Assembly: GCA_964601625.1 (NCBI GenBank)
Contig: CAZROC010000001.1
Span: forward strand, 46,348-110,347
DNA length: 64,000 nucleotides
Direction of reading: 5' to 3'
Source of the DNA: an uncultured Thermoplasmata archaeon
GTDB lineage: Archaea; Thermoplasmatota; Thermoplasmata; JAGHBH01
How positions within the stretch are numbered: the first letter of the stretch is position 1; the number at the start of each line of letters is the position of its first letter. This document shows, one piece after another, positions 6,892 to 52,152 of this stretch. Position numbers and translations under genes: made by a program. The notes below the pieces were generated by a model, which worked only from the letters and a program-made list of their open reading frames with translations, did not search any database and was not told the DNA's origin.

Positions 6892-8148
6892 GTGATATCA
6901 ATGGAGTCAAAAAACCCACCTGACGAAGACAGAAAAAGAGATGGAAGGTTATCAATATGTTTCGTAGCGTACGCGCCCCCTTTTGCTTCCGGCGGTGCAA
7001 GCACACATTTCTGGGAACTGTTGAAACACCTCCCATCGTTCCTTTTTGCCGAGGGGAAAGAAGGTAGGATATGTGTGGTTATGGAAGATATACCACACCC
7101 GGAGATAAAAGGGGTTGAGTTTCACGTCGTCAAAGGAAATTACCTGCCCTCTTACAGAAAGAGAACCTCCGCCAGGATCCATCGCTTTCTGCTTTCCCTC
7201 CGACTGGTCTTTCTGGCCAAAAAAGATTGTAAAAACGCAGATATAATATATTCAAGGAGTCTCATAAACGCTTTTTTCCTGCTCTTTTTGTGGCCGGATA
7301 AAAGGAAAAATCTTGTCCTGGAGGCGAACGGGATATGGTCTGAGGAGCACCTGTCCAGAAAAGGTGGCAAAAAAGACCTGACCTATATCCTGTTGCGGTG
7401 GATGGAGAAAAAGGTTGCTGGTTCTTCCGCCGGGATTATATGTGTGACGCCGCAAATAGCCGAGTTTTATGGGAGATACAACAGCAATGTTTTCGTAGTA
7501 CATAATGGCGTTGACACCACTCTTTTCCGTCCATTGTCTATGGAAGATCGGCTTTATATGAAAAAAAGTTTTGGCCTCAACGGTTTCCCTGTTGTGGGCT
7601 TTGTGGGCAATTTTGCACCGTGGCAGGGGCTGGAACTGATTGTTCCCATGGCCAGAATAGTGGTTGAGCATTACCCAGATGTCAGGTTTTTACTCGTGGG
7701 AGATGGCGAAGTCAAAGAGAATCTTGAGCGAGAGGTGGCAGAGGCGGGTCTTGAAAAACATTTCATCTTTGCAGGACACGTCGACTACGAGAAGGTGCCT
7801 ATGTACATAAACGCCATGGACGTGTGCGTTGCCCCGTTCTGGAAGGGAAAAATGGTTGGGGGGGTCTCCGCATTGAAATTATATGAATATATGGCATGTG
7901 GGCGGCCAATAGTGGTGTCCGCTGTTCCAAATACGGAGTTTATAAACAAAGTGAGATGTGGATTGAGGTTTAGTCCGGGAAATCCTGATGATTTCGCGCG
8001 CAAAGTTTTACATCTGCTGGAGCACAAAAAAGAGGCAGAGGAGATGGGGCAGGCTGGTAGAAAATTTGTGGAAATTGAAGGGAGCTGGAAAAAAGTCGCA
8101 GAGAAAACATCAGAAATTTTTTATAAAATAAACGCTAAAGAAACATAA
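6892..8148 (+). CDS. Glycosyltransferase family 4 (GT-B, Glycos_transf_1)
   Basis: The C-terminal domain carries the GT4 E-x7-E region (LYEYMACGRPIVVS) and VGFVGNFAPWQGLELIV. The likely true start is the ATG at 6901 after an AAGGGGG Shine-Dalgarno. Confidence 0.8.
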   Translation: MISMESKNPPDEDRKRDGRLSICFVAYAPPFASGGASTHFWELLKHLPSFLFAEGKEGRICVVMEDIPHPEIKGVEFHVVKGNYLPSYRKRTSARIHRFLLSLRLVFLAKKDCKNADIIYSRSLINAFFLLFLWPDKRKNLVLEANGIWSEEHLSRKGGKKDLTYILLRWMEKKVAGSSAGIICVTPQIAEFYGRYNSNVFVVHNGVDTTLFRPLSMEDRLYMKKSFGLNGFPVVGFVGNFAPWQGLELIVPMARIVVEHYPDVRFLLVGDGEVKENLEREVAEAGLEKHFIFAGHVDYEKVPMYINAMDVCVAPFWKGKMVGGVSALKLYEYMACGRPIVVSAVPNTEFINKVRCGLRFSPGNPDDFARKVLHLLEHKKEAEEMGQAGRKFVEIEGSWKKVAEKTSEIFYKINAKET

Positions 8149-21445: not shown

Positions 21446-22993
21446 CTAGATTCGTCTTCTGATTGGATTTAAATGGACAAGGATTTCTTTGACATCGCTT
21501 TTTTCTTTTGGGGACAATCCTAATATGTAAAACAGCCCTGCGAACAGCCCGGTACCGATAATAAGATATGCCACCAACATCATCAACCCGGTGGGGGGGA
21601 GATACATTTGAAGACCATACAGTAGCCCCCCTACGAATAGAGAAAGAACATACGGGACTGCCAGGACTTCCCTAGTGTATCTCCGCACATCTATTTTGAG
21701 AAGTCTCCAGGCATGTCTGTGTATCAACGGCATCACGACGAAGTATGGTATGGTGGTTCCAAGAACTACTCCCAGAAGGCCATAATATCTAACAAGAATT
21801 ATACTTAATAATAAATTGAGTACGGCGTTACCCATGTTTAAATAAAGTATCGGCTTGAACCGCTCTTTTGCTAATAGAGTGTTTCCTATAGTCCCGAAAG
21901 GAGCCAGTATGAACCAATATAAAAGATAGACCCTTGCAACCAATCCTATCCATTCATAACTTTCTCCCATCCAGAAACGAATAATGTGATCTGCGAGAAC
22001 AAAAATTGGAACAAGAGCCATAAATGTGATCGCACACCTATACTTGCTGCCCGTATACAGGATTCTTTCAATCTTTTCTTTCTCCTTTAGAGTGTCCATT
22101 TCAGTGATGGCAGGAAGGAGAGCGCTTCCGGATAGATACCAAACTGATTGCACAACCTGATGCAACTTTCTGGCTACAGAATAGAATGTAATCGCAGACA
22201 TGGAAAGAAACACTCCGAGCACGATCTGGTCAGTGTAAAGAATAATCATGCCAGCTATATTTGTGAAAAAGATAACAACGCTGAAGGTGAATATGTTGCG
22301 CAATGTCTTTGTCGTCATATATTCCCGTTTAAGTGTGATGTAAGGTGCTAACCTGTGGATTACGAAGATGTGAATTACCTGTAGGAGTGTGCTTGCTATT
22401 ACCTGAAAGAATATGAGCTCAATAATCCCGTACCCTGACGAAAGAACAACCCATGTAATAGCAGCATTAACAGAACTCCCAAAAACAGTCAGTTTGGCTG
22501 CGATATCGTATCGCTGAAGGCCCGCATATATCGATTGAAATGAACGTATAGGCCAACTGGTCAGACTGGTAACTGCCGTTATATAAAAAATATATCTAGC
22601 TATCCAATAGTCCTCAGTATCTATTTTGAACAGAGACAAACCCGATGTTCCTATAAGTATAAGTGCAGAAAATATAATAAGTCCAACTCCAATGTAAAAA
22701 AGAAAAACTGAATTAATCATTTTATTAATTGTCTCCTTGTCTCCCCTAGCATTATACTGGGCCACATATTTTACTAAGGCTGTTCCAAAGCCAAAATCCA
22801 ACAGTCCAAAATATCCTGTTACACTACCTACTAAGAGCCAAATGCCATACATCTCGGCTCCAACATGATGGACTATGAATGGAAACAGGATGAAGTTGAG
22901 AGCGTATCTCCATAGCCGAGCAAAACTGTTGGCAAGAGTATTTGCCGCAATCTTCGTCTTTGTACTATACATGTTTCCACTCCTGTCACTCAT
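21446..22993 (-). CDS. Polysaccharide/oligosaccharide flippase (MOP superfamily, Wzx-like)
   Basis: ~515 aa, 12-14 predicted TM helices, the N-terminal pattern of polysaccharide-biosynthesis (Wzx) proteins; AT-rich coding sequence. Confidence 0.75.
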   Translation of the reverse strand: MSDRSGNMYSTKTKIAANTLANSFARLWRYALNFILFPFIVHHVGAEMYGIWLLVGSVTGYFGLLDFGFGTALVKYVAQYNARGDKETINKMINSVFLFYIGVGLIIFSALILIGTSGLSLFKIDTEDYWIARYIFYITAVTSLTSWPIRSFQSIYAGLQRYDIAAKLTVFGSSVNAAITWVVLSSGYGIIELIFFQVIASTLLQVIHIFVIHRLAPYITLKREYMTTKTLRNIFTFSVVIFFTNIAGMIILYTDQIVLGVFLSMSAITFYSVARKLHQVVQSVWYLSGSALLPAITEMDTLKEKEKIERILYTGSKYRCAITFMALVPIFVLADHIIRFWMGESYEWIGLVARVYLLYWFILAPFGTIGNTLLAKERFKPILYLNMGNAVLNLLLSIILVRYYGLLGVVLGTTIPYFVVMPLIHRHAWRLLKIDVRRYTREVLAVPYVLSLFVGGLLYGLQMYLPPTGLMMLVAYLIIGTGLFAGLFYILGLSPKEKSDVKEILVHLNPIRRRI

Positions 22994-28312: not shown

Positions 28313-28393
28313 GTGGTATAGAAAGGCGGGGTTGTTCTTAACCCTTTCTTTGGTTCGGAGATGTTTATATATCGGGGGTTGTTTTTCTCCACC

Positions 28394-29737
28394 ATGAAGG
28401 TTGGCATCGTTGGCACAGGATATGTGGGGCTTGTCACCGGGGTCTCCCTGGCGGAAAAGGGACACGAGGTGCTCTGTCTGGACGTGGACAGGGCTCGTGT
28501 TGACATGGTGAACAGGGGCGTGCCCCCTTTTTTTGAGCCGGGGCTGGAAGAAGCCCTGGGACGTGTGGTTTCTTCGGGAAATCTCCGTGCGTCAGATTCT
28601 TATGGCGATCTCGCTGGCTTTGAGGTGGTTCTCATATGTGTCAACACCCCATCTGCCGCTGATGGGAGCATGGACTCGTCTCAGCTCGTCTCTGCCGCCG
28701 CTTCCGTTGGGGACGTCCTGGGGGATATGAAAAAGAGTGTGGGGTTTCCAGTTGTGGCCGTGAAGAGCACCGTTTTGCCCGGCACCACGCTTGGGGTTGT
28801 CAGGAACACTTTGGAAAGCGTTTCGGGGATGGTTGCGGGTGTGGACTTTGGCCTGGCCATGGTGCCCGAGTTTTTGCGGGAGGGCAGTGCCCTGGAAGAT
28901 GCGAGGCGCCCGGACCGTGTGGTGGTCGGTGCTTTTGACAGGAGATCGGGGGACGTGCTTTCGTCTCTGTACGGTGATTTCGGCTCTCCTGTTGTGGTCA
29001 CGGATGCTGTGACCGCGGAGATGGTGAAATATGTTGCCAACTCTTTTCTGGCCACGAAGATATCTTTTGCAAACGAGATGGCGAGGATATGCGACAGGGT
29101 TGGGGCGGACGTGTACCGTGTCATGGACATCGTGGCCATGGACAGGCGGATTGAGCGGTCTTTTCTGAACGCCGGGCCGGGCTTCGGGGGCAGCTGTTTT
29201 CCCAAGGACGTGAGGGCTCTGGCACGTTTCGCTGAAGAAAACAATGTCAGGCCGCTCATTCTGAGGAGCGTGCTGGAGATAAACGAGTCACAGCCAGTCT
29301 ATGTGGTGGACGTGCTGGAAAAAGTGCTCGGAGGCCTCCGGAACAGGAGGGTGGCTGTGCTGGGCCTCTCCTTCAAGGGCGGGACGGATGATGTGCGTGA
29401 GAGCAGGGCTTTTCCCATCGTGAGGGAGCTCAAAAAGAGGGGAGCAAATGTTGTCTGTTATGACCCCGCTGCTGGAAAAAACTTTGCCGAAAAAGAGCCC
29501 GTTGATCTCGCAGAGGACATAAAGAGCGCTCTGGAAGGTGCCGACGCCTGTGTGATACAGAGCGACTGGGACGAGTTCCGCTCTCTCCAGCCCGGTGATT
29601 TCCGTGTTATGAAGACACCTGTTGTTTATGACACAAGGCGTGTCCTGGGGTTTGAAAGCGGGGAGGTGACTGTGCTGAGGGTCGGCGGCGGCATACCGGG
29701 AATTAAAAGAGATACGCATGATGGAGGTGCGTTGTGA
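28394..29737 (+). CDS. UDP-sugar 6-dehydrogenase (UDP-glucose / UDP-N-acetyl-D-mannosamine dehydrogenase family)
   Basis: MKVGIVGTGYVGLVTGVSLAEKGHEV is the N-terminal NAD-binding motif; catalytic Cys region ...GPGFGGSCFPKDV. The adjacent WecB homolog suggests a WecC-like role, but a Ugd role is not excluded. Confidence 0.85.
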   Translation: MKVGIVGTGYVGLVTGVSLAEKGHEVLCLDVDRARVDMVNRGVPPFFEPGLEEALGRVVSSGNLRASDSYGDLAGFEVVLICVNTPSAADGSMDSSQLVSAAASVGDVLGDMKKSVGFPVVAVKSTVLPGTTLGVVRNTLESVSGMVAGVDFGLAMVPEFLREGSALEDARRPDRVVVGAFDRRSGDVLSSLYGDFGSPVVVTDAVTAEMVKYVANSFLATKISFANEMARICDRVGADVYRVMDIVAMDRRIERSFLNAGPGFGGSCFPKDVRALARFAEENNVRPLILRSVLEINESQPVYVVDVLEKVLGGLRNRRVAVLGLSFKGGTDDVRESRAFPIVRELKKRGANVVCYDPAAGKNFAEKEPVDLAEDIKSALEGADACVIQSDWDEFRSLQPGDFRVMKTPVVYDTRRVLGFESGEVTVLRVGGGIPGIKRDTHDGGAL

Positions 29738-36222: not shown

Positions 36223-39165
36223 TCAGCCCTGTTTTCCCTCGTGGTTGGGCTCGTAGGGGTTGAAAGCCGGGTCGCCGTGGAGGACGAACTCCTCAAAGGT
36301 GTCGCACACCGTGCCGCCGTTGTCGCTGCCGCCTTCGTGCTCTATGTACCTGTTCTTGGCATCCATGAGAGCAAAGCCGACGCTGGTGTTGCCGTAAACC
36401 CAGCCCTCTGTCATGCCGCCGTCTTTGTTGTAAATGTATCCTGTGAGATCAGCGTAAATGTACAGTGCGAGAAGGTCGCCCAGGCTCTCGCCGGAACTCT
36501 CGTCAGGTATGGGCACCAGGCTACCCCAGGACTCTCTGGTAGCGCCTATATAAGCGTTCATCCCCGCGTGCAGGAACGCCTGTGAGAGAGCGTTTCTGCC
36601 CGGAATCCCGTCTATCCTGCCGGTCACACATGAAGAGCCAAAGATGACACTGGGACCAAACGTCATGTCTTTGACATGTGTCACATCAAAAGCTCCGCCG
36701 CCATAGGTGGGCTGTGTTATGCCTGCCATGCCCTCCTGGGCCGTGGGCACGTACCAGTAATAGAAACCGTGTGCACAGAAAAAGATGAAATTGGCGCTTT
36801 CGTAAAAAGGCTGTGAATACTGTCTCCTGCTCATCTGGTTCTGCAGGTTGTACGGTTTCTTGTTCGTGCTCATACCTGCCGCCTCGTACATCGCGGCCAG
36901 TTTTGTAGTTGTGGGATATGCACTGTCAATGGGCGGTTCAGAGCCAACAGTGGTTATGGCACTATCTTTCCAGAAAGGGGCAAGGTGTCCACTTTCCATC
37001 GGATTTTCGGTGTTCTTCGGACCACGGTAGTTTTCTATTATACGATGATAGAACACGTTTCTGGCTATGAGGGCGCTGACGTCCTGGGCGTCCCATCCGT
37101 CCACACGTCCCACCGCCAGCTCAAACGAGGCATCTTCTCCGGTGACACTGTATGGGGGATCGTCAAGGTCTGCGTCAACGTCCATGTAGCAGATATCGCT
37201 TGGAATCCCGAAACCCTCGGTGGCGTCTCCCTGGCCGTTGCTTGGATAGAAGTACATCGGGACCATGTTGGTGTCGGCTATTATTCCCACATACATGACC
37301 GTCTCGGGGTCCTGGGCCAGCTGGGCATAGTATTCCGCGAGTGCCGTCGGATCTGGTTCCATTCCAGCGATCTTAGCCAGCAGGCGATTGAGCTGTTTTT
37401 TTACCTCTTTGACCTCCTCGTTGGCGTCCCAAAGCGCCTCGGGGTTGGCGGCGGGAACACCGCACCCCGAACACCCTATGTAACCGGGACTGTACATCTC
37501 AAAGTCAGGTCTGGCCAGCACAACACCCTTGTGGTACGCCGCCAGATACGGGGCCATGCTGGAGAGACCGAACATCAGCGGATAGTTTGTGTCCTCCAGT
37601 TCCTGCACAGTTATGTCAACTGTGAAAGGCGCCGACGTGTCGGGGTCCGTGGGGAGTTTCCCCAGCAGCTGTATGATGTGCTCTGGTTGCTCCTCGTTGT
37701 AGAACGGGAGCTCTATGTAAAAGTGAGCCCAGAGAGGTTTGCTGTGGGGGTCCCTGGGATTGGCTCTGATGTAGTCATATCCCGGAGAGCCGCCGAAAAA
37801 CTGTAGCTCGTCGCTTTCGGTGGAAGTGTCAAGCACGCTGTCGTTGTTTCTGTCAATCCCTATAAACACGTATATTCTTTCCCCGGAGCCGTCGGCGTTG
37901 TGCTCAACGTTGTCTCTCAGAGGGCCATAGCTCCACGTCGGGCCAGTGGCCTCTGACACGTCCATCTTCACGTCTATTTTCACGTTCGCATATTTGTAGG
38001 GGATTGTGAAGTTGAACGCTGGTCCGTCGTTGCCCTCTGGCGCTGCGCCGGGATAAGCACGCGCGGACGAGTCGTGGATTATGCCCTCAAAGTGAAACTT
38101 TAACTCCTGCGGTTCCCCATCAACAACCTTCACCCTGGGAGGATAGACATCCATGGGGTTGGCCAGGGCTATGTAATTTATGTCGCCGCCCACACGCTCA
38201 CGTATCACCTTTATGATGGCGTCCTCTATCTCCTCATAACTCTTAAAATGCAGTGCTTTTCCGAAGCCGCCTATGTCCCCGCAGACTATTGAGTATTTGA
38301 CCTTCAGCGAAGACAGGATGTCTGCCACGTGGGCGTCCACTCCGCCGTCAACGACTATAACAGGTATGCTCAGATATGATGCCAGGGGGACCGCATTAAC
38401 CGCTTCCTCGTATCCTTTCTCGTCATCGTTGACAAGTACGACGGCGTCCGTGTAGTTCCAGAAATGAACAGCCACGTCCAGAGACACTTCTTCCGGCGTG
38501 CCAGAAAAAGGCGGAAGAACAAGCTCTCCCGGGAGCTCCGTATAAAGCGGGTCTCCGAGCACTATCAGAGATGCGTTTGTCGGGTCATACATGTTGAGGA
38601 AATGGCCGATGGCAGACGACCCGGATGTGTAGGGATAACGGTCTTCTTTTCCCTGGTAGACGAGCAATGGATGGAACGTGGGGGTGGACCCCGTGTAATA
38701 TGCACCAAGGGGCGTGCCTATCAGAGCGTACATGGGAGAAGAATCCGAGGCGATGAAAGCCACGTCTCCGGGGTCTTTGAACTGGGACTCTATCCTCAAA
38801 AGCTCGTCAACACTCGCACTCCCTGTCTCGTACCCTGTAACGGTCGGGCCACGCATAGAAACAGCGACCCAGAGGACCGTTGCAAGAAACAGAAGAGCTA
38901 TCACGCCGGCGAGTATCTTTTTGGTCCGGGCGTCAGAAAAATCTGGTTTTTTGGACGGCCTAAAGGACGGTTTCGCAGGGGGGCTCGCTTTAGGTTTTGA
39001 AAAATCCGGTTTCTCAGCCCCGGGACCAGCAACATCGCTTTCCTGGGCAGCCTGGGCAGACCCACTTTTTGGCTCCGGTTGCATTTGCTCTGCTGTTGGA
39101 GTCTCTGCGGTCTCCGCATGGACGTTCTCAGGATTTTCGGGAGCAGTTTTTTTGTCCTCTGTCAT
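36223..39165 (-). CDS. Large membrane-anchored extracellular protein with a C-terminal clan-CD (C25/gingipain-like) cysteine peptidase-like domain
   Basis: N-terminal ~100-aa low-complexity cytoplasmic tail, one TM (ILAGVIALLFLATVLWVAV), then a ~850-aa ectodomain. Candidate His/Cys dyad: FIFFCAHGFYYWY and VIFGSSCVTG, plus a VGRVDG...YHR region like C25 N-terminal domains. Start taken at ATG 39165 after GAGGTGGTG. Confidence 0.4.
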   Translation of the reverse strand: MTEDKKTAPENPENVHAETAETPTAEQMQPEPKSGSAQAAQESDVAGPGAEKPDFSKPKASPPAKPSFRPSKKPDFSDARTKKILAGVIALLFLATVLWVAVSMRGPTVTGYETGSASVDELLRIESQFKDPGDVAFIASDSSPMYALIGTPLGAYYTGSTPTFHPLLVYQGKEDRYPYTSGSSAIGHFLNMYDPTNASLIVLGDPLYTELPGELVLPPFSGTPEEVSLDVAVHFWNYTDAVVLVNDDEKGYEEAVNAVPLASYLSIPVIVVDGGVDAHVADILSSLKVKYSIVCGDIGGFGKALHFKSYEEIEDAIIKVIRERVGGDINYIALANPMDVYPPRVKVVDGEPQELKFHFEGIIHDSSARAYPGAAPEGNDGPAFNFTIPYKYANVKIDVKMDVSEATGPTWSYGPLRDNVEHNADGSGERIYVFIGIDRNNDSVLDTSTESDELQFFGGSPGYDYIRANPRDPHSKPLWAHFYIELPFYNEEQPEHIIQLLGKLPTDPDTSAPFTVDITVQELEDTNYPLMFGLSSMAPYLAAYHKGVVLARPDFEMYSPGYIGCSGCGVPAANPEALWDANEEVKEVKKQLNRLLAKIAGMEPDPTALAEYYAQLAQDPETVMYVGIIADTNMVPMYFYPSNGQGDATEGFGIPSDICYMDVDADLDDPPYSVTGEDASFELAVGRVDGWDAQDVSALIARNVFYHRIIENYRGPKNTENPMESGHLAPFWKDSAITTVGSEPPIDSAYPTTTKLAAMYEAAGMSTNKKPYNLQNQMSRRQYSQPFYESANFIFFCAHGFYYWYVPTAQEGMAGITQPTYGGGAFDVTHVKDMTFGPSVIFGSSCVTGRIDGIPGRNALSQAFLHAGMNAYIGATRESWGSLVPIPDESSGESLGDLLALYIYADLTGYIYNKDGGMTEGWVYGNTSVGFALMDAKNRYIEHEGGSDNGGTVCDTFEEFVLHGDPAFNPYEPNHEGKQG

Positions 39166-39206
39166 CAACACCACCTCAATTATAGCACAGAACCAGACAG
39201 GTCGGA

Positions 39207-44016: not shown

Positions 44017-44104
44017 TGGCGCGGGGAGGGAGATTTGAACTCCCGAGACGCAGTGCGTCAACGGATTAGCAATCCGTCGCCGTACCGGGCTGGGCCATCC
44101 CCGC
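44017..44104 (-). tRNA. tRNA-Ser (anticodon GCU), class II with a long variable arm; CCA encoded
   Basis: Reverse complement reads GCGGGGA TG GCCC...GGC A ACGGA TTGCTAA TCCGT TGACGCACTGCGTCT CGGGAGTTCAAATCTCCCT TCCCCGC G CCA. It has a 7-bp acceptor stem, a 5-bp anticodon stem with the TTGCTAA loop (anticodon GCT), a variable-arm hairpin GACGCA/TGCGTC, and the T-loop GTTCAAATC. Confidence 0.9.
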
Positions 44105-44717: not shown

Positions 44718-45024
44718 TTCGCTGATAAAAATTTGTCGTATCCACCCTCAAAAAAATGTGAAAAGCCGGGCAACATCTTTTTACCACCTGCATTCTAACA
44801 TCCGGAGGGGAAAATACCCCACCTTTCACCCCATTTCACCCACTAACTTTAAATACGAGTATGGCCTCTATGTTTAGTGCAGAAAACTCATTCCCTCACA
44901 ATCACGCTCAACGTATCATCCACATCACGTGTCCAGCATGCGGATGTGAGACAACGGAGTTTGTATGAGAGCGGCTGTGGGGGGAGTTTTCTGCATAAAA
45001 ACACGACGAGAGAAGGTGATATAT

Positions 45025-46356
45025 ATGGGAATGGACCCGACAGCGATGAAATACAAGATAAGAGCGACGATCACAACAGATGGGGTGGTGGAAAAACCAG
45101 ACGTCATAGGCGCCATATTCGGACAGAGCGAGGGCCTGCTTGGAGAGGAACTGGACCTCCGGGACCTCCAGAAGAGCGGGAGAATAGGCCGCATAGAGGT
45201 GGAAATATCGTCCCAGAAGGGGAAATCCGAGGGGACCATAGAGATACCCTCCAGCCTGGACCAGGTGGAAACCGCCATACTGGCCGCCGCTCTTGAAACC
45301 ATAGAGAGAGTTGGCCCGTGCAAAGCAGAAATAAAGGTTGAGGCAATAGAGGACGTGCGGATGAAAAAACGCCTGTTCATCGTTGAGCGGGCGAAAAAAC
45401 TCCTTGAAAAACTCCTTGAAGAGAGCAAGAACGTTTCCGCAGACCTCACAGAGTCTGTGAGGGAGGCGATACACGAAGAAGAGATAATCAGCTATGGGCC
45501 CGAAAAGCTCCCGGCGGGGCCCAACGTGGAAACAAGCGACTCAATCATTGTGGTAGAAGGAAGAAGCGATGTTCTCAACCTCTTGAAGCACGGGATAAAA
45601 AACGCCATAGCGGTTGAGGGAACCAGCATACCTGAGACGATACAGAAGCTCTCAGAGGAAAAAACGGTCATAGCGTTTGTGGACGGAGACAGGGGCGGAG
45701 AGCTCATCCTGAAGGAACTCCTGCAGGTGGCCGACGTTGATTTCATAGCGAGGGCTCCCCGGGCCCACGAAGTTGAAGAGCTGACCTACAAGCAGATTCA
45801 GAAAGCCCTCAGGAACAAGATACCCGCAGACCAGTTCATAGAGATGTATTCCATTGACATAGGCGACAGAAAGAAAAACCACCGCCACGAAGAAAAGAGA
45901 GAGGAGAAGAAGACGAGGGACAAAAACGGGGAAAACAGCCATGCATCTGAAAGGTCCGGGGCGGACAAAAACGGTGTGAAAAAAGAAGAAGAAAAAAAGG
46001 ATGAGGAAATGAAAACAGGCGGCGAAAAGAAAGCGAACAAAAAACTGGAGAAAAACCTGTCGCCTGAACAGGAAAAACTGAAAGAGCACATGGACAAAAT
46101 CATGGGAAAACACACCGTTCGCCTGCTTGACGAAAACTTCAACGTAGTCGCAGAAACACCTATAAAAGAGATGTTTAATATAATCAAAAAGAACGAGGGA
46201 AAGTTCAAAAAGATAGTGATGGACGGCATAGTAACCCAGAAGCTGGTTGACACAGCGGTTGCAACGGGCGCCGACGCCGTGGTCGGACTGAAAATGGGCA
46301 ACATCTCCAAAATGCCAGCCAGCCTGAAAGTGTGGACAAAAAAAGACCTGTACTAA
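45025..46356 (+). CDS. dnaG: Archaeal DnaG-type primase (TOPRIM) with a Lys/Glu-rich C-terminal extension
   Basis: KYKIRATITTDGVVEKPDVIGAIFGQSEGLLG is the archaeal DnaG N-terminus. TOPRIM: IIVVEGRSDVLNLLKHGIKNAIAVEGT...IAFVDGDRGGELI. Start at ATG 45025 after an AGGTGA Shine-Dalgarno. Confidence 0.85.
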   Translation: MGMDPTAMKYKIRATITTDGVVEKPDVIGAIFGQSEGLLGEELDLRDLQKSGRIGRIEVEISSQKGKSEGTIEIPSSLDQVETAILAAALETIERVGPCKAEIKVEAIEDVRMKKRLFIVERAKKLLEKLLEESKNVSADLTESVREAIHEEEIISYGPEKLPAGPNVETSDSIIVVEGRSDVLNLLKHGIKNAIAVEGTSIPETIQKLSEEKTVIAFVDGDRGGELILKELLQVADVDFIARAPRAHEVEELTYKQIQKALRNKIPADQFIEMYSIDIGDRKKNHRHEEKREEKKTRDKNGENSHASERSGADKNGVKKEEEKKDEEMKTGGEKKANKKLEKNLSPEQEKLKEHMDKIMGKHTVRLLDENFNVVAETPIKEMFNIIKKNEGKFKKIVMDGIVTQKLVDTAVATGADAVVGLKMGNISKMPASLKVWTKKDLY

Positions 46357-46371
46357 ACCGGTGGCCACAAG

Positions 46372-47901
46372 ATGCCAGAAAGAGAAAAACCACGCCTGGA
46401 CCCGCTGCGGGGCTTTGACCTGGAAGACATGGAAACAACAGAGGACATCATCATACCACACGACCCCCTAGACAGGGTCATAGGACAGGACGAGGCAATA
46501 GAACTCGCAAGGATAGCAGCGGCCCAGCACAGACACCTGCTCTTGGTGGGCCCCCCCGGAACGGGAAAGTCAATGATAGGCCAGGCACTGGCACTACATC
46601 TCCCACCGCCGCAGGAGGAAATACACGTTGTCCACAACCCGGAAAACCCCGAGCGGCCCGTCGTGGAAATAAAAACCCGGGAGGAGGTGGAAAAAGCCCA
46701 GAGAGAAAAAGAGAGCGCTGCCGGAGAGCTGATAGACCCGCGCGAGGCGCCCATAAATGTGGCCGAAAAGCTCGGGTTCAGGTGTATGCACTGCGGCACG
46801 TATTCGTCCCCCCGCGAGACGGTCTGCCCGAAGTGTGGAAGACCAAAGATGGTCCACCCCGCAAGCCAGAACCTGCCCTTCGGAGACATTTTCAGCGAGA
46901 TGATAAGCGCCATAAACCTGGGCAGAACAGAGCGTGTGACCACAACACGAAAACGGTTTGGAAAAGAAGAGGTGGTCGTCTACGAGCGGGCAGGAGAAAT
47001 GATACGTATGCTGGACCAGGAGGCACTTGAGAGGCGGCGAGAGCTGGAAAAGATGAGCCCCCGAAAGGTGCTGGTTCCCATTGACAGAAAACCCTTCGTC
47101 CTGGCCACGGGTGCGAGTGAGACAGAACTCCTGGGAGACGTGCGCCACGACCCCTACGGGGGCCATCCACAGCTCGGGACGTATCCCTATGAGAGGGTGT
47201 TGCCGGGCAGCATACACGAGGCACACGAGGGAGTACTTTTCATAGACGAGCTACCACACCTCGGACACCTCCAGAGGTACATACTCACCGCCATGCAGGA
47301 GAAAAAGTTCCCGATAACGGGTCGCAATCCACAGAGCGCCGGAGCCAGCGTGAGAGTTGACGACGTGCCATGTGATTTCATATTTGTGGGAGCGTGCAAC
47401 ATACAGGACCTGCCAGAGGTTCTTTCACCCCTGCGCTCAAGGATAATAGGCTCGGGGTACGAAATACTCGTGGAGACAACCATGCCAGACACCCCGGAGA
47501 ACAGGTCCAAACTAGCACAGTTTGTTGCCCAGGAGATATCCATGGACGGGAGGATACCCCACGCCACCCGCGGGGCCGTGAAAGCCATCATAGAGGAGGC
47601 AAAAAAACGTGCCAGGGTCTATGACAAAAAAGACCGTGCCCTGACACTCCGCCTGCGAGAACTCGGGGGGCTTGTCAGGGCGGCGGGAGACCTGGCCAGA
47701 AGAGAGGGAGCGGGGTACATAACAGAAAAACACGTGCGCATGGGACTCCGGATAAGCAAAACAGTTGAAGAGCAGATAAAAGAAAGGTACGGTTCCTATT
47801 ATAGCGGCGTGGCAGCCGATGTTTCCGGCGCACAGAAAGAGACGAGTCCATACCACTACTGGAACGTTACCATGCAAGACGACAAAAGAGGATACTGGTA
47901 G
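46372..47901 (+). CDS. LonB-like AAA+ ATPase without a protease domain or TM insert; carries a CxxC...CxxC zinc-ribbon insertion
   Basis: N-terminus DRVIGQDEAIELARIAAAQHRHLLLVGPPGTGKSM matches the archaeal LonB ATPase module; Walker B VLFIDEL. The protein ends ~130 aa after the AAA lid, with no S16 Ser-Lys protease region. CMHCGTYSSPRETVCPKCG sits where LonB has its transmembrane hairpin. Confidence 0.7.
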   Translation: MPEREKPRLDPLRGFDLEDMETTEDIIIPHDPLDRVIGQDEAIELARIAAAQHRHLLLVGPPGTGKSMIGQALALHLPPPQEEIHVVHNPENPERPVVEIKTREEVEKAQREKESAAGELIDPREAPINVAEKLGFRCMHCGTYSSPRETVCPKCGRPKMVHPASQNLPFGDIFSEMISAINLGRTERVTTTRKRFGKEEVVVYERAGEMIRMLDQEALERRRELEKMSPRKVLVPIDRKPFVLATGASETELLGDVRHDPYGGHPQLGTYPYERVLPGSIHEAHEGVLFIDELPHLGHLQRYILTAMQEKKFPITGRNPQSAGASVRVDDVPCDFIFVGACNIQDLPEVLSPLRSRIIGSGYEILVETTMPDTPENRSKLAQFVAQEISMDGRIPHATRGAVKAIIEEAKKRARVYDKKDRALTLRLRELGGLVRAAGDLARREGAGYITEKHVRMGLRISKTVEEQIKERYGSYYSGVAADVSGAQKETSPYHYWNVTMQDDKRGYW

Positions 47902-47950: not shown

Positions 47951-48391
47951 TTAGAAGAAGGGTTTTCTCACCATTTTATAGGCCGGAGAACCGTCCGTGT
48001 AGTAGCCGGGCAGGATTTCCACTATCTCAAACCCCCTCTTTCTGTAAAAATCTATGGCCCCGGAGTTGTTCGTCCTCACCTCAAGGGTTATGCCAGAGAG
48101 GTTTCTGTTGGAAAAACGGCACAGCAACTCATCAAACAGTGCGGACCCGACACCCCGGCAGCGGTATCTCTCATCAACAGCCAGCATGAGGATCCTGAGC
48201 ATCCGGTCCTCTTCCACTCCAAGGACGAAACCAACCACTTCTCCCCCGTCAACAGCGACAATGAACCCTTCGGGGGAAAGGGCGTATATGGTGGTGAACA
48301 GCGAGGGATCGTAGGGCTCTCTTAGAGTGTTATCTGATAGACGTTTGACCTTTTCAAGGTCCGAGGGCCTGAAAGAACGTATAACCAACAT
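47951..48391 (-). CDS. GNAT family N-acetyltransferase (RimI-like)
   Basis: RCRGVGSALFDELL... is the acetyl-CoA-binding motif A (R/Q-x-x-G-x-G/A); ~146 aa. Confidence 0.75.
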   Translation of the reverse strand: MLVIRSFRPSDLEKVKRLSDNTLREPYDPSLFTTIYALSPEGFIVAVDGGEVVGFVLGVEEDRMLRILMLAVDERYRCRGVGSALFDELLCRFSNRNLSGITLEVRTNNSGAIDFYRKRGFEIVEILPGYYTDGSPAYKMVRKPFF

Positions 48392-50889: not shown

Positions 50890-52152
50890 ATGGAGCAGAA
50901 ACTCGCTGAAGAGGAGAGGCGGAAAAACCTTGAAAAGGCCCGTTATGATTTCAAAAGGGCGCTTGAGGAGTTGAGACAGTATTCGGGGCGGGGGACAGAG
51001 CTCATCTCACTCTATATACCGCCAACGAGACAGATACACGAGGTCATGGCATACCTGCGAAACGAGTACTCTCAGAGCAGCAACATAAAATCAAAGAGCA
51101 CCAGGAAAAACGTTATGGCGGCGATAGAGTCCATAATGAGCCGGCTCAAAGCGTACAAAACGCCTCCGCCAAACGGCCTGGTCTTCTTTGTGGGCCACGT
51201 CCCGAAAGCGGGGGACCAGACGGAAATGGTGGCATACGTCCTGGAGCCGCCGGAGCCAATTTCCACCTATCTCTACAGGTGTGACTCCCGGTTCTATCTT
51301 GAGCCCCTTGAGGATATGCTGGTTGAAAAGAAATCGTATGGTCTCATAGTCATAGACCGAAACGAGGCCACCATTGGTCTCCTGCGAGGGAAAAGGATAC
51401 AGGTCATAAGGAACATCCAGAGCAGGGTCATGGGAAAACACCGCCAGGGGGGACAGTCCAGCGTCCGTTTTGAACGTCTGATAGAGATCGCCGTGCACGA
51501 GTATTTCAAAAAGGTGGGAGACGCCGCCAACGAAGCATTTCTGCAGGAACCCGAGCTCCAAGGTATCCTGATAGGCGGGCCGGGGTCCACAAAGAGGGTT
51601 TTCGCCGAGAAAGACTATTTGCACCACGAGCTGAAAAAAAAGATAATAGACCTGATAGACACAGGCTACACCGATGAGTACGGGTTGCGGGAGCTCGTCC
51701 AGAACGCGGAAAGGGTGCTGGCGGACATTGAGATGGTGAAGGAAAAAAGACTCATGCAGAGGTTTCTACGTGAGGTGCGGAAGCCCAACGGCGGGCTGGC
51801 CGCTTATGGAGAGGAGGAGGTGAGACGGGCCCTGGAACTCGGGGCGGTGGACACCCTTCTGATATCGGAAGACCTCCGCGAGTACCGGCTGAAGTTCAGG
51901 TGTCCTTCCTGTGGAAAAGAGGTGTCTCTCAAAGAAAAGGAAAAAATAGTGGCACCCACGTGTCCAGAGTGCGGTTCTACCATGGAAATCGTTGAGAAGG
52001 TTGATCTGGTAGACGAGTACTATGACCTCGGAGAGATGGGGGGAGCAAAGGTGGTCCTGGTCTCCACGGACACAGAGGAGGGGGAGATGTTAAAAAGGGC
52101 TTTTGGGGGGGTGGCTGCCATATTGCGCTACAAGGTTGACACCACCACGTAG
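50890..52152 (+). CDS. prf1: Peptide chain release factor aRF1
   Basis: NIKS motif (SSNIKSKSTRKNV) and GGQ motif (RQGGQSSVRFERL); the C-terminal domain has a CxxC...CxxC zinc-ribbon insertion (CPSCGKEV...CPECGSTM). Confidence 0.9.
   Translation: MEQKLAEEERRKNLEKARYDFKRALEELRQYSGRGTELISLYIPPTRQIHEVMAYLRNEYSQSSNIKSKSTRKNVMAAIESIMSRLKAYKTPPPNGLVFFVGHVPKAGDQTEMVAYVLEPPEPISTYLYRCDSRFYLEPLEDMLVEKKSYGLIVIDRNEATIGLLRGKRIQVIRNIQSRVMGKHRQGGQSSVRFERLIEIAVHEYFKKVGDAANEAFLQEPELQGILIGGPGSTKRVFAEKDYLHHELKKKIIDLIDTGYTDEYGLRELVQNAERVLADIEMVKEKRLMQRFLREVRKPNGGLAAYGEEEVRRALELGAVDTLLISEDLREYRLKFRCPSCGKEVSLKEKEKIVAPTCPECGSTMEIVEKVDLVDEYYDLGEMGGAKVVLVSTDTEEGEMLKRAFGGVAAILRYKVDTTT

Follow-up and report, generated by a model that had tools for sequence, protein, structure and literature searches.

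LonH is encoded directly downstream of dnaG

What could a relative of archaeal LonB do without a membrane anchor and without a protease domain, and what does its position beside dnaG say about its role? This question is raised by an open reading frame (ORF) in the DNA analyzed here, a 64-kb stretch (the window) from an uncultured Thermoplasmata lineage. The ORF was confirmed from ATG to TAG at 46372..47901 (+) with a product of 509 amino acids (aa), and on three independent public contigs a 509-aa product identical to the window protein was called. An alternative start at Met20 (46429) is possible, and the equivalent of Met20 is the start in some homologues. We coined the name LonH for this protein and its family, after the database label "lon protease homolog." An earlier interpretation made from the letters alone (the sequence-only reading) had placed the ORF right after archaeal dnaG; this proved correct, with a gap of 15 nt. 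The features of the locus and of the protein are as follows.

44965..46356, + strand: archaeal dnaG (Toprim protein), with Pfam Toprim_4, Toprim and Toprim_2 matches
46357..46371, + strand: spacer from the dnaG stop to the LonH ATG, 15 nt, read from the sequence
46372..47901, + strand: LonH ORF, encoding a LonB-like AAA+ ATPase that lacks protease and anchor (509 aa plus stop)
46417..46659, + strand: LonB-type N-terminal segment and start of the ATPase core (residues 16-96), aligning with 3k1j 26-108
46549-46572, + strand: Walker A GPPGTGKS (residues 60-67), invariant across the LonH family
46660..47085, + strand: family-specific insertion domain (residues ~97-238, ~140 aa), at the site of the LonB transmembrane hairpin
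46783..46836, + strand: four-Cys zinc ribbon CxxC-x10-CxxC (C138, C141, C152, C155), within the insertion domain
47086..47496, + strand: remainder of the ATPase core (residues 239-375), which shares about 50% identity with LonB and keeps all motifs
Within 47086..47496: pore loop 1 HDPY (Y262), Walker B VLFIDE (288-293) and the FPITGRNPQS loop (313-322)
Within 47086..47496: sensor 1 N343 and the Arg finger in LRSR (R355/R357)
47497..47790, + strand: alpha-helical AAA+ lid (residues 376-473), aligning to 3k1j up to chain residue 386
47791..47898, + strand: C-terminal tail (residues 474-509, 36 aa) in place of the protease domain, with a conserved SPYHYWN block
47890-47898, + strand: terminal G-Y-W, an HbYX-like end

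The spacer holds GGTGG about 8 nt 5' of the LonH ATG, a Shine-Dalgarno-like element that may act as such. On the 3' side lies a convergent GNAT acetyltransferase gene (47951..48391), and the window genes around LonH are housekeeping genes. A role as a defense component (e.g., BrxL) was considered and rejected on the basis of these neighbors and of PADLOC, which gave generic P-loop matches only (≤27 bits). For the window dnaG itself, an independent gene call puts the start 60 nt later.

The AAA+ motor of LonH is homologous to that of LonB

The proposal that the ORF encodes a LonB-like AAA+ ATPase module was confirmed by profile and structure matches. The NCBIfam LonB model TIGR00764 matched the window protein with 374.4 bits (E 1e-111). 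Among structures, 3k1j and 4zpx of Thermococcus onnurineus LonB matched with E values of 8.6e-89 and 8.1e-88 over query residues 19-100 plus 239-473. The best stretch of TIGR00764 ends at about model position 402 of 608, and the score falls below the curated whole-protein cut-off (374.4 versus 516.6 bits) since the protein does not match the last third of the model. Homology to archaeal LonB (TonLonB 3k1j/4zpx; T. acidophilum Lon) thus runs through the AAA+ module from the N terminus to the end of the lid, the identity being 37-43% overall and rising to about 50% in the core. The two proteins share the Walker motifs, the position of the pore loop, sensor 1, the Arg finger and the site of the insertion, which separates Walker A from Walker B; LonH has Tyr as its pore-loop aromatic where LonB has Phe. 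The LonH lid carries an LTLRLRELGG sensor-2 region and an EEQIKERY helix, which in LonB runs into the protease domain. Pfam LonB_AAA-LID matched residues 397-459 under its cut-off, and AlphaFold2 confidence peaks in the lid (pLDDT ~82-97, residues 361-460).

Is this motor likely to be functional? Walker A and B, the HDPY pore loop, sensor 1 and the Arg finger are conserved in 45 diverse members of the LonH family. Judged by its motifs, whose functions we take to be those generally assigned in LonB and other AAA+ proteins, the motor is shown to be intact, with the motifs for binding and hydrolyzing ATP and the pore-loop aromatic all present. The pore loops differ hardly at all from those of LonB; because LonB translocates proteins, this similarity points to a polypeptide as the substrate.

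A zinc-ribbon domain replaces the membrane hairpin and the protease domain is absent

Canonical LonBs reach hydropathy values of 2.3-2.6 in two segments at approximately residues 120-220. No transmembrane segment was found in LonH, where the maximum 19-residue Kyte-Doolittle mean is 1.07, and the profile therefore agrees with the sequence-only reading, which had described a protein without a membrane anchor. That reading had also claimed that there is no S16 domain and that no protease ORF follows. Lon_C/S16 did not appear among the 25 listed of the 31 Pfam families matched at E ≤ 1, and tblastn with eight full-length LonBs (E ≤ 10) revealed no S16-like sequence anywhere in the 64-kb window, in any frame, so that no frameshifted protease lies downstream of LonH. 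One dimension had to be corrected: ~130 aa had been allotted to the region after the AAA+ lid, but LonB homology including the lid reaches residue 473, leaving 36 residues. Compared with LonB, LonH therefore has a zinc-ribbon domain for the transmembrane hairpin, no S16 Ser-Lys domain and an added x-Tyr-x tail.

The suggestion that a zinc ribbon replaces the LonB hairpin was right in that four Cys residues lie at that site (the string CMHCGTYSSPRETVCPKCG, residues 138-156), but the ribbon is not bare and forms part of the ~140-aa insertion domain. This domain is beta-rich and has the conserved blocks RVTTT, GKEEVVVYER and IRxLDQ. None of the four Cys residues varies among 48 aligned close homologues, and they are kept across phyla as well. 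Pfam zinc-ribbon matches are weak and under cut-off; we infer that the ribbon binds metal. No nucleic-acid-binding fold was recognized in the insertion domain.

Could LonH be a helicase- or translocase-like nucleic-acid motor that pairs with DnaG, as DnaB does with bacterial DnaG, its zinc ribbon supplying the zinc-binding element missing from archaeal DnaG? Pfam matches to the Mg_chelatase, sigma-54 activator, RuvB_N and MCM families, the appearance of RuvB, RuvBL1/2 and MCM after the Lon matches in Foldseek and the linkage to dnaG are all in line with such a motor, and in RuvBL proteins, too, an inserted domain separates Walker A from Walker B. However, the RuvB and MCM matches are only marginal next to a core identity to LonB of 40-50%, the pore-loop sequences GDVRHDP-Y and FPITGRNPQS are almost those of the protein translocase, and the insertion lacks a recognized nucleic-acid-binding fold. 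We consider a nucleic-acid motor improbable.

LonH forms a sister family of LonB in several archaeal phyla

In an NJ tree, LonH separated from LonB as a monophyletic family (100/100 bootstraps), and the LonH tree tracks phyla. LonH is a sister family of LonB. It spans at least four archaeal phyla, the range being Thermoplasmatota, Altiarchaeota, Micrarchaeota/Iainarchaeota and Jord-/Freyarchaeia. All 120 listed close homologues have 492-525 aa, there are hundreds of homologues of ~510 aa with about 70% identity, and an architecture of 440-540 aa recurs in hundreds of clusters from several phyla. The conserved architecture, the ~70% identity and the monophyly together indicate selection on the protease-less form and not an accident of truncation. 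The earlier idea of a soluble Lon-derived unfoldase or regulator is supported: it stood on every point that could be tested, and the architecture is conserved family-wide.

A TIGR00764 score under the curated cut-off is also what a decaying or misassembled LonB (pseudogene, truncation or frameshift) would give. We rejected this explanation, to which we assign practically no probability, given that the architecture is found in hundreds of clusters from several phyla with all catalytic ATPase residues conserved; in addition, the product is identical on three independent contigs, no S16 remnant was found in any frame and the tail is conserved.

The family also bears on the possibility of a split Lon, in which LonH, as one half, would dock on a separate S16 (Lon_C-only) peptidase or serve as a regulatory subunit of canonical LonB. 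Canonical LonB and LonH do coexist in at least two cases, namely MNVE01, a Micrarchaeota genome that contains both L052 and L080, and the Iainarchaeum locus L041, where the LonB gene lies 5 kb from LonH. In two Micrarchaeia loci, a Lon_C-domain protein is encoded 1-2.3 kb downstream on the same strand. Such adjacency is limited to these 2/66 loci, with a partial match 5.6 kb upstream in a third (L052), and the Micrarchaeia protein, with a signal-like segment at its N terminus and a membrane segment at its C terminus, is probably extracytoplasmic, which argues against a split Lon. S16 sequence is absent from the window and from the surroundings of LonH at all other family loci, and mixed rings with membrane-anchored LonB would be unprecedented. 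We judge a split Lon to be very improbable.

The LonH family is already catalogued, a fact of which the sequence-only reading was unaware. The Thermoplasma acidophilum protein Q9HLX6 (Ta0098; CAC11246), labeled "Putative lon protease homolog" in Swiss-Prot, is 61% identical to the window protein over 482 residues. It belongs to the same length class (~490-510 aa), has the zinc ribbon and has dnaG immediately upstream; no architectural difference separates the two proteins, both of which lack a transmembrane segment and an S16 domain, and the T. acidophilum protein ends in S-Y-E versus G-Y-W in the window. P58275 of T. volcanium, a "Putative lon protease homolog" in Swiss-Prot, is of the same family.

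LonH lies outside the classical AAA clade: its closest relatives are LonB and LonC, and the Pfam AAA (PF00004) match is weak and local. The next-best structural match after LonB is LonC of Meiothermus taiwanensis (MtaLonC, 4fw9; Foldseek E ~1e-8). Both LonC and LonH are Lon relatives with a remodeled domain set. LonC kept its protease and has a degenerate ATPase (PMC3391209), whereas LonH kept the ATPase and lost the protease, the mirror image.

The LonH tail ends in a conserved penultimate aromatic residue

The conserved x-Tyr-x end of LonH had been missed by the sequence-only reading. Residues 490-509 are predicted to be disordered, and all 120 listed close homologues end in G-Y-X. At family loci from Thermoplasmatota, Altiarchaeota and Jord-/Freyarchaeia, Tyr or Phe occupies position -2 in 44/44, despite divergent length and sequence of the preceding tail, which brings the count among non-DPANN members to 164/164 (120 listed close homologues plus 44 loci). 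The rate in background ORFs is 6.7%, and none of 14 canonical LonBs has such an end. The ends include GYQ, SYM, LYR, YYR, MFN, SYG and IYN. The full motif, with a small or hydrophobic residue at -3 plus Tyr/Phe at -2, is present in all 120 listed close homologues and in 43 of the 44 non-DPANN loci. The sole miss is a Jordarchaeum member that ends in R-Y-G.

Does this end resemble a proteasome-docking motif? Forouzan et al. (2012; PMC3493965) call for Tyr/Phe at -2 preceded by a residue that is small or hydrophobic, and as a sequence the G-Y-W end of the window protein fits this description. By the original HbYX definition, which asks for a strictly hydrophobic -3 residue, the window protein falls outside. 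At -3 the window protein has Gly and most members have Gly or Ser, with Leu, Ile, Met or Tyr only in some; since Gly and Ser are not bulky hydrophobic residues, pocket affinity and perhaps gate opening should be weaker. The core of gate opening is a Tyr-X bridge, in which the Tyr OH pairs with G19 and the carboxylate with K66, and the Hb group contributes chiefly affinity (Chuah et al. 2023; PMC10349882). All 16 members from Micrarchaeota, Iainarchaeota and other DPANN lineages lack the Tyr and end in E-V-A, E-V-R or x-I-x, suggesting either that docking is not family-wide or that the motif serves another partner. The penultimate Tyr could also have a different target altogether or contact the protein's own ring.

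Linkage to dnaG is deeply conserved

The depth of conservation of the dnaG adjacency also went beyond what had been noticed earlier. In 42/66 family loci, dnaG lies directly upstream of LonH on the same strand (median gap, 11 nt), spanning Thermoplasmatota, Altiarchaeota, Micrarchaeota and Iainarchaeum, and in T. acidophilum dnaG overlaps the start of the LonH homologue by 19 nt. The two genes are probably cotranscribed. The adjacency is absent at the Jord-/Freyarchaeia loci, and no other conserved neighbors (proteasome, exosome or Cdc48 genes) were found at LonH family loci. DPANN members without the Tyr keep the adjacency, and the linkage is therefore more universal than the tail motif.

These observations are the strength of the main rival to a proteasomal role, in which LonH would be a stand-alone remodeler of proteins or ribonucleoproteins that works with DnaG, for example by assembling, recycling or stripping proteins from DnaG-capped RNA exosome or primase complexes. 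The C-terminal Tyr would then dock on DnaG, the exosome or an adaptor, not on the proteasome, and the zinc ribbon could bind nucleic acid. The overlap in T. acidophilum, the standing of dnaG as the only conserved neighbor and the persistence of the linkage in DPANN members without the Tyr fit such a remodeler, but tight housekeeping operons do not require physical interaction, and the Jord-/Freyarchaeia loci do without the adjacency. A remodeler also leaves unexplained why Tyr or Phe is fixed at -2, a geometry best known from docking into proteasome pockets, and our literature search found no published DnaG interactor of this kind. We regard a DnaG-associated remodeler as unlikely, although it is the strongest of the alternatives to docking.

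LonH is a candidate proteasome partner in PAN-less archaea

Thermoplasma acidophilum is a classic model for the 20S proteasome. It has the 20S proteasome and the LonH orthologue Q9HLX6 and lacks PAN. PAN is absent from all Thermoplasmata surveyed, in an analysis of classical AAA proteins only (Forouzan et al. 2012; PMC3493965), and from this same classical-AAA-limited survey Cdc48/VAT is regarded as the only proteasomal ATPase of T. acidophilum (PMC3493965).

One potential explanation for the tail, which we put forward tentatively and at somewhat less than an even chance, is that LonH forms soluble hexamers that unfold proteins and dock on the 20S proteasome of archaea without PAN. LonH would be an ATP-hydrolyzing, ring-forming protein unfoldase derived from the membrane protease LonB, with six subunits assembling into a ring, as for LonB. 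The insertion domains would crown the substrate-entry face, where the anchors emerge in LonB, and would select substrates or adaptors, as the zinc-binding domain does in ClpX. From the opposite face, where LonB has its protease ring, the tails would hang, and their penultimate Tyr and terminal carboxylate would enter the pockets between 20S alpha subunits, as those of PAN, Cdc48/VAT and AMA do. If the tails dock in this way, LonH would feed unfolded proteins to the 20S proteasome and may represent a second proteasomal ATPase for lineages without PAN, including all Thermoplasmata surveyed. Its probable cotranscription with dnaG suggests a connection of its substrates or its regulation with DnaG or the RNA exosome. 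Counting against docking, the sole conserved genomic link of LonH is to dnaG and not to proteasome genes, and we know of no proteasomal ATPase in the LonB/H2-insert branch of AAA+.

A linkage between exosome and proteasome genes was reportedly predicted in 2001. We can also envision, as a long shot, that LonH bridges the DnaG-exosome and the 20S proteasome and so physically links RNA decay to protein decay. Encoded on one transcript with DnaG, the exosome cap protein, LonH would engage DnaG or ribonucleoprotein substrates through its zinc-ribbon crown and strip proteins off them, while its Tyr-ended tails plug into the proteasome, so that RNA would go to the exosome and protein to the proteasome. 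Such a link, if true, would provide a mechanism for the predicted gene linkage and would make LonH the first proteasomal ATPase that is not of the classical AAA clade.

LonH compared with known unfoldases

How would a docking LonH compare with the known proteasomal ATPases? PAN, Cdc48/VAT and AMA of archaea, Rpt1-6 of eukaryotes and Mpa of actinobacteria are HbYX-dependent, ring-shaped unfoldases. Like LonH, they have no protease of their own and carry a flexible tail ending in [small/hydrophobic]-Tyr/Phe-X, the docking being a proposal in the case of LonH. PAN, Cdc48 and AMA belong to the classical AAA clade, whereas LonH belongs to the LonB branch of AAA+. LonH also lacks a coiled-coil/OB or double-psi-barrel N-domain; on the substrate side it has an internally inserted domain instead.

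ClpX is an AAA+ unfoldase whose peptidase is a separate protein, and it carries a Cys4 zinc-binding domain where substrates enter. LonH would share this layout. However, ClpX is from an unrelated AAA+ branch, its zinc domain is N-terminal and not inserted, and it docks on ClpP via IGF loops and not C-terminal tails.

A conserved LonB-derived motor with a proteasome-type C-terminal motif is found in T. acidophilum and more widely in Thermoplasmatota, Altiarchaeota and some Asgard lineages. Docking, if true, would make LonH a second, independently evolved proteasome cap and would mean that a self-contained AAA+ protease, Lon, can lose its peptidase and attach to a different one. The probable dnaG-LonH operon, conserved across phyla, offers a separate lead into DnaG and exosome biology. 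If docking is false, LonH still represents a widespread, uncharacterized, putative soluble unfoldase currently misannotated as "ATP-dependent Lon protease." A full-text literature search found no paper on the LonH family, its tail, its dnaG linkage or the function of any member. Proteomics of Cuniculiplasma detects two Lon-annotated proteins, CSP5_1287 and CSP5_1716 (PMC7285479).

LonH is a LonB-like ATPase with neither a protease domain nor a membrane anchor

A sequence-only reading had reported an open reading frame for a LonB-like AAA+ ATPase immediately after dnaG, and we recovered it at exactly that position. We use the name LonH for this protein and for its family.

44965-46356 (+): dnaG
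46372-47901 (+): LonH, ATG to TAG, 509 aa
Next gene after LonH, convergent: GNAT acetyltransferase

LonB, the membrane-anchored archaeal Lon protease, was used for comparison. The LonB-like ATPase module was detected by TIGR00764, the NCBIfam LonB model (374 bits, E 1e-111), and the closest solved structures are those of Thermococcus onnurineus LonB (3k1j, E 8.6e-89; 4zpx, E 8.1e-88), which align with LonH residues 19-100 and 239-473. The score falls below the 516.6-bit cut-off of TIGR00764 because the best stretch stops at model position ~402 of 608. Pfam returned Mg_chelatase, AAA and sigma-54-type matches and, below threshold, LonB_AAA-LID at residues 397-459 and a zinc ribbon at 136-156; Lon_C, the S16 protease domain, was absent from the best 25 of the 31 Pfam families matched at E<=1. 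When eight full-length LonBs were searched against the 64-kb window (tblastn, E<=10), the ATPase part alone was matched and no S16 sequence was found, so no protease domain is hidden in another frame. These searches agree with the earlier claim that neither the protein nor a following ORF supplies a protease. The membrane anchor was likewise missing, with a maximum hydropathy of 1.07 versus two segments at 2.3-2.6 in every canonical LonB tested.

Two details of the first description changed. Since LonB homology, including the lid, extends to residue 473, only 36 residues remain after the lid, and not ~130; the last 20 are predicted to be disordered. The zinc-ribbon sequence is present at residues 138-156 (CMHCGTYSSPRETVCPKCG), but it is not a bare ribbon, as it sits inside a conserved insertion domain of ~140 aa (residues ~97-238). 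The finding is real and its interpretation supported.

Three of the four defining LonB features tested are lacking in LonH (protease domain, transmembrane hairpin and a score above the model cut-off), and LonH is not a LonB protease. It is very probably an active, soluble, protease-less ATPase derived from LonB and kept under purifying selection. Three independent public contigs, one from a JGI metagenome, carry an identical LonH product, and it is barely conceivable that the gene is a pseudogene.

LonH belongs to an old, widely distributed family

No Lon_C domain was present in any of the best 120 database matches, all of which are 492-525 aa long, ~70% identical and labeled as Thermoplasmata or Thermoplasmatota MAGs. 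A family scan with one genome per species yielded 66 loci of LonH architecture and 14 canonical LonBs (629-741 aa). The 66 loci came from Thermoplasmata, DHVE2/Aciduliprofundum, Methanomassiliicoccales, Cuniculiplasma, Ferroplasma, E-plasma, Altiarchaeales, Micrarchaeota, Iainarchaeum, Jordarchaeia and Freyarchaeota, and at least two genomes encode canonical LonB and LonH together. Kept in an alignment of 53 sequences were Walker A, Walker B (GVLFIDE), the sensor-1 Asn, the LRSR Arg finger, the FPITGRNPQS loop and the GDVRHDP-Y pore loop, where LonB has Phe. Within the insertion domain, every phylum retains all four Cys as well as the blocks RVTTT, GKEEVVVYER and IRVLDQ. On these comparisons, the LonH architecture is a family trait and not an accident. 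All 100 bootstraps of a neighbor-joining tree (403 columns) set the LonH family apart from LonB. Branching inside the family tracks phyla, which indicates an old paralogue inherited vertically.

Members from cultured organisms include T. acidophilum Q9HLX6 (CAC11246), 61% identical to the window LonH over 482 residues, and T. volcanium P58275, both titled "Putative lon protease homolog"; Picrophilus, Acidiplasma, Thermogymnomonas and Aciduliprofundum proteins also belong. The window gene is a new member of a known, catalogued but uncharacterized family, on no member of which a paper was found in the literature searched. The Altiarchaeales genome Bin_400 has two paralogues, one (L035, WJMO01000006) with a full insertion and dnaG upstream and the other (L045, WJMO01000004) in which the insertion domain is shortened and no match to dnaG was obtained.

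The C-terminal tail resembles a proteasome-docking motif

LonH family proteins stop 30-40 residues past EEQIKERY, the helix that leads into the protease domain in LonB. G-Y-X is the C-terminal end of every one of the 120 close homologues. In the 44 complete loci compared across Thermoplasmatota, Altiarchaeota and Jord-/Freyarchaeia, the penultimate residue is Tyr or Phe without exception (for example, GYQ, SYM, SYH, AYH, LYR, YYR, MFN, SYG, SYL and LYG). The background frequency is 6.7% among 465 ORFs taken from these loci, and none of 14 LonBs shows it. Tail length and sequence differ widely among the 44 loci; such constancy relative to the C terminus, with all the preceding sequence free to drift, is what marks a terminal docking motif.

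HbYX motifs, which dock ATPases such as PAN, Cdc48/VAT and AMA on the 20S proteasome, have been defined by a small or hydrophobic residue at -3 and Tyr or Phe at -2 (Forouzan et al. 2012, PMC3493965). The LonH tail fits this operational definition; a caveat is that -3 is occupied by Gly or Ser in most members, the window protein included. In the T. acidophilum 20S at high resolution, the core of gate opening is a Tyr-X bridge (Tyr OH to G19, carboxylate to K66), and the Hb group makes chiefly an affinity contribution (PMC10349882). PAN was missing from all Thermoplasmata surveyed, and a single proteasomal ATPase, Cdc48, was credited to them because the survey took in classical AAA proteins only (PMC3493965).

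A further caveat on the tail is that x-Tyr-x is replaced by E-V-A, E-V-R or x-I-x in each of the 16 Micrarchaeota/Iainarchaeota-type members. The ends seen in Micrarchaeota, Iainarchaeum and other DPANN lineages, which include D-I-T, H-I-F and G-I-V/L, are different and partly conserved.

Loci with non-Tyr-ended LonH: L038, L041, L042, L044, L046-L048, L052-L055, L057, L058, L060, L063, L064

The LonB ring carries its protease on one face and its membrane anchors and substrate entry on the other. By analogy, the LonH tail would exit on the face that bears the protease in LonB, and the insertion on that of the anchors, hence on the substrate-entry side, a geometry that would also suit docking. 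As the favored of several readings, we tentatively propose that LonH may be a soluble, hexameric unfoldase that would use its Tyr-ended tails to dock on the 20S proteasome, select substrates with its zinc-ribbon crown and be expressed with dnaG.

LonH is linked to dnaG

Exactly one conserved neighbor, a DnaG homologue, was found across the 66 loci. In 42 of them, which span Thermoplasmatota, Altiarchaeota, Micrarchaeota and Iainarchaeum, it is the gene immediately upstream in the same orientation (median gap, 11 nt). The gap in the window is 15 nt and contains GGTGG, and the two T. acidophilum genes overlap by 19 nt. No such linkage was seen for canonical LonB in the loci compared. Archaeal DnaG is an RNA exosome cap subunit and possibly a primase too (PMC4227792); given its place in the cap, the pairing suggests either that the turnover of RNA and of protein is regulated jointly or that DnaG and LonH are direct functional partners.

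The dnaG pairing is also the main support for the leading, though rather unlikely, alternative, in which LonH is a remodeller serving DnaG or the exosome specifically and its tail binds a different partner. A nucleic-acid motor paired with DnaG is improbable and does not sit well with the LonB-like pore loops. Still more improbable is a split Lon or LonB regulator: the sole nearby Lon_C proteins, in two Micrarchaeia genomes (L044, 9645-11372 [+]; L053, 8421-10232 [+]; 575-603 aa), are encoded on the LonH strand 1-2.3 kb downstream and have a signal-like N terminus, an N-terminal Lon_C domain and a C-terminal membrane segment. They are probably extracytoplasmic and thus probably not LonH partners.

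As the 20S-docking unfoldase we propose, LonH would work like PAN, Cdc48 and AMA, though it does not belong to their clade. Its overall logic would be that of ClpX, a zinc-binding-domain unfoldase separate from its peptidase. LonH is the mirror image of LonC, in which the ATPase activity has gone but the protease remains (PMC3391209). Both the proteasome-type tail, which is conserved, and the dnaG operon are apparently undescribed in the literature searched, and together they make the hypothesis directly testable in the T. acidophilum model system.

Other features of the window

In the window DnaG, Toprim and the C-terminal domain are separated by a long, low-complexity insert rich in Lys and Glu (~residues 300-365), and independent gene calls place the start of the gene 60 nt later. 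A lone tRNA gene, the sole Rfam match in the window, lies at 44020-44104 (-) between a DUF6015 gene and dnaG.

GC content is low at 4000-28000 (39-46% in most 2-kb windows, versus ~53% elsewhere in the window). This stretch, which encodes glycosyltransferases (6892-8148) as well as a protein of the polysaccharide flippase type (21446-22993, -), resembles a variable island of surface-glycan genes. Just past the 3' edge of the stretch, where GC content is 56%, lies a gene for UDP-glucose dehydrogenase (28361-29737). Large proteins form a cluster apparently for protein degradation and uptake:

36223-39174 (-): Peptidase_C25 protein, 983 aa
54009-58220 (+): Kelch-repeat protein, 1403 aa
58759-61227 (+): M14 carboxypeptidase, 822 aa
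61157-62785 (+): SNF-family sodium symporter

The aRF1 release factor (50890-52152, +) is a second protein near LonH with an inserted zinc ribbon, a CxxC...CxxC insert in domain 3 (~residues 336-370) that gives Pfam HypA and Zn_ribbon_LysW matches.
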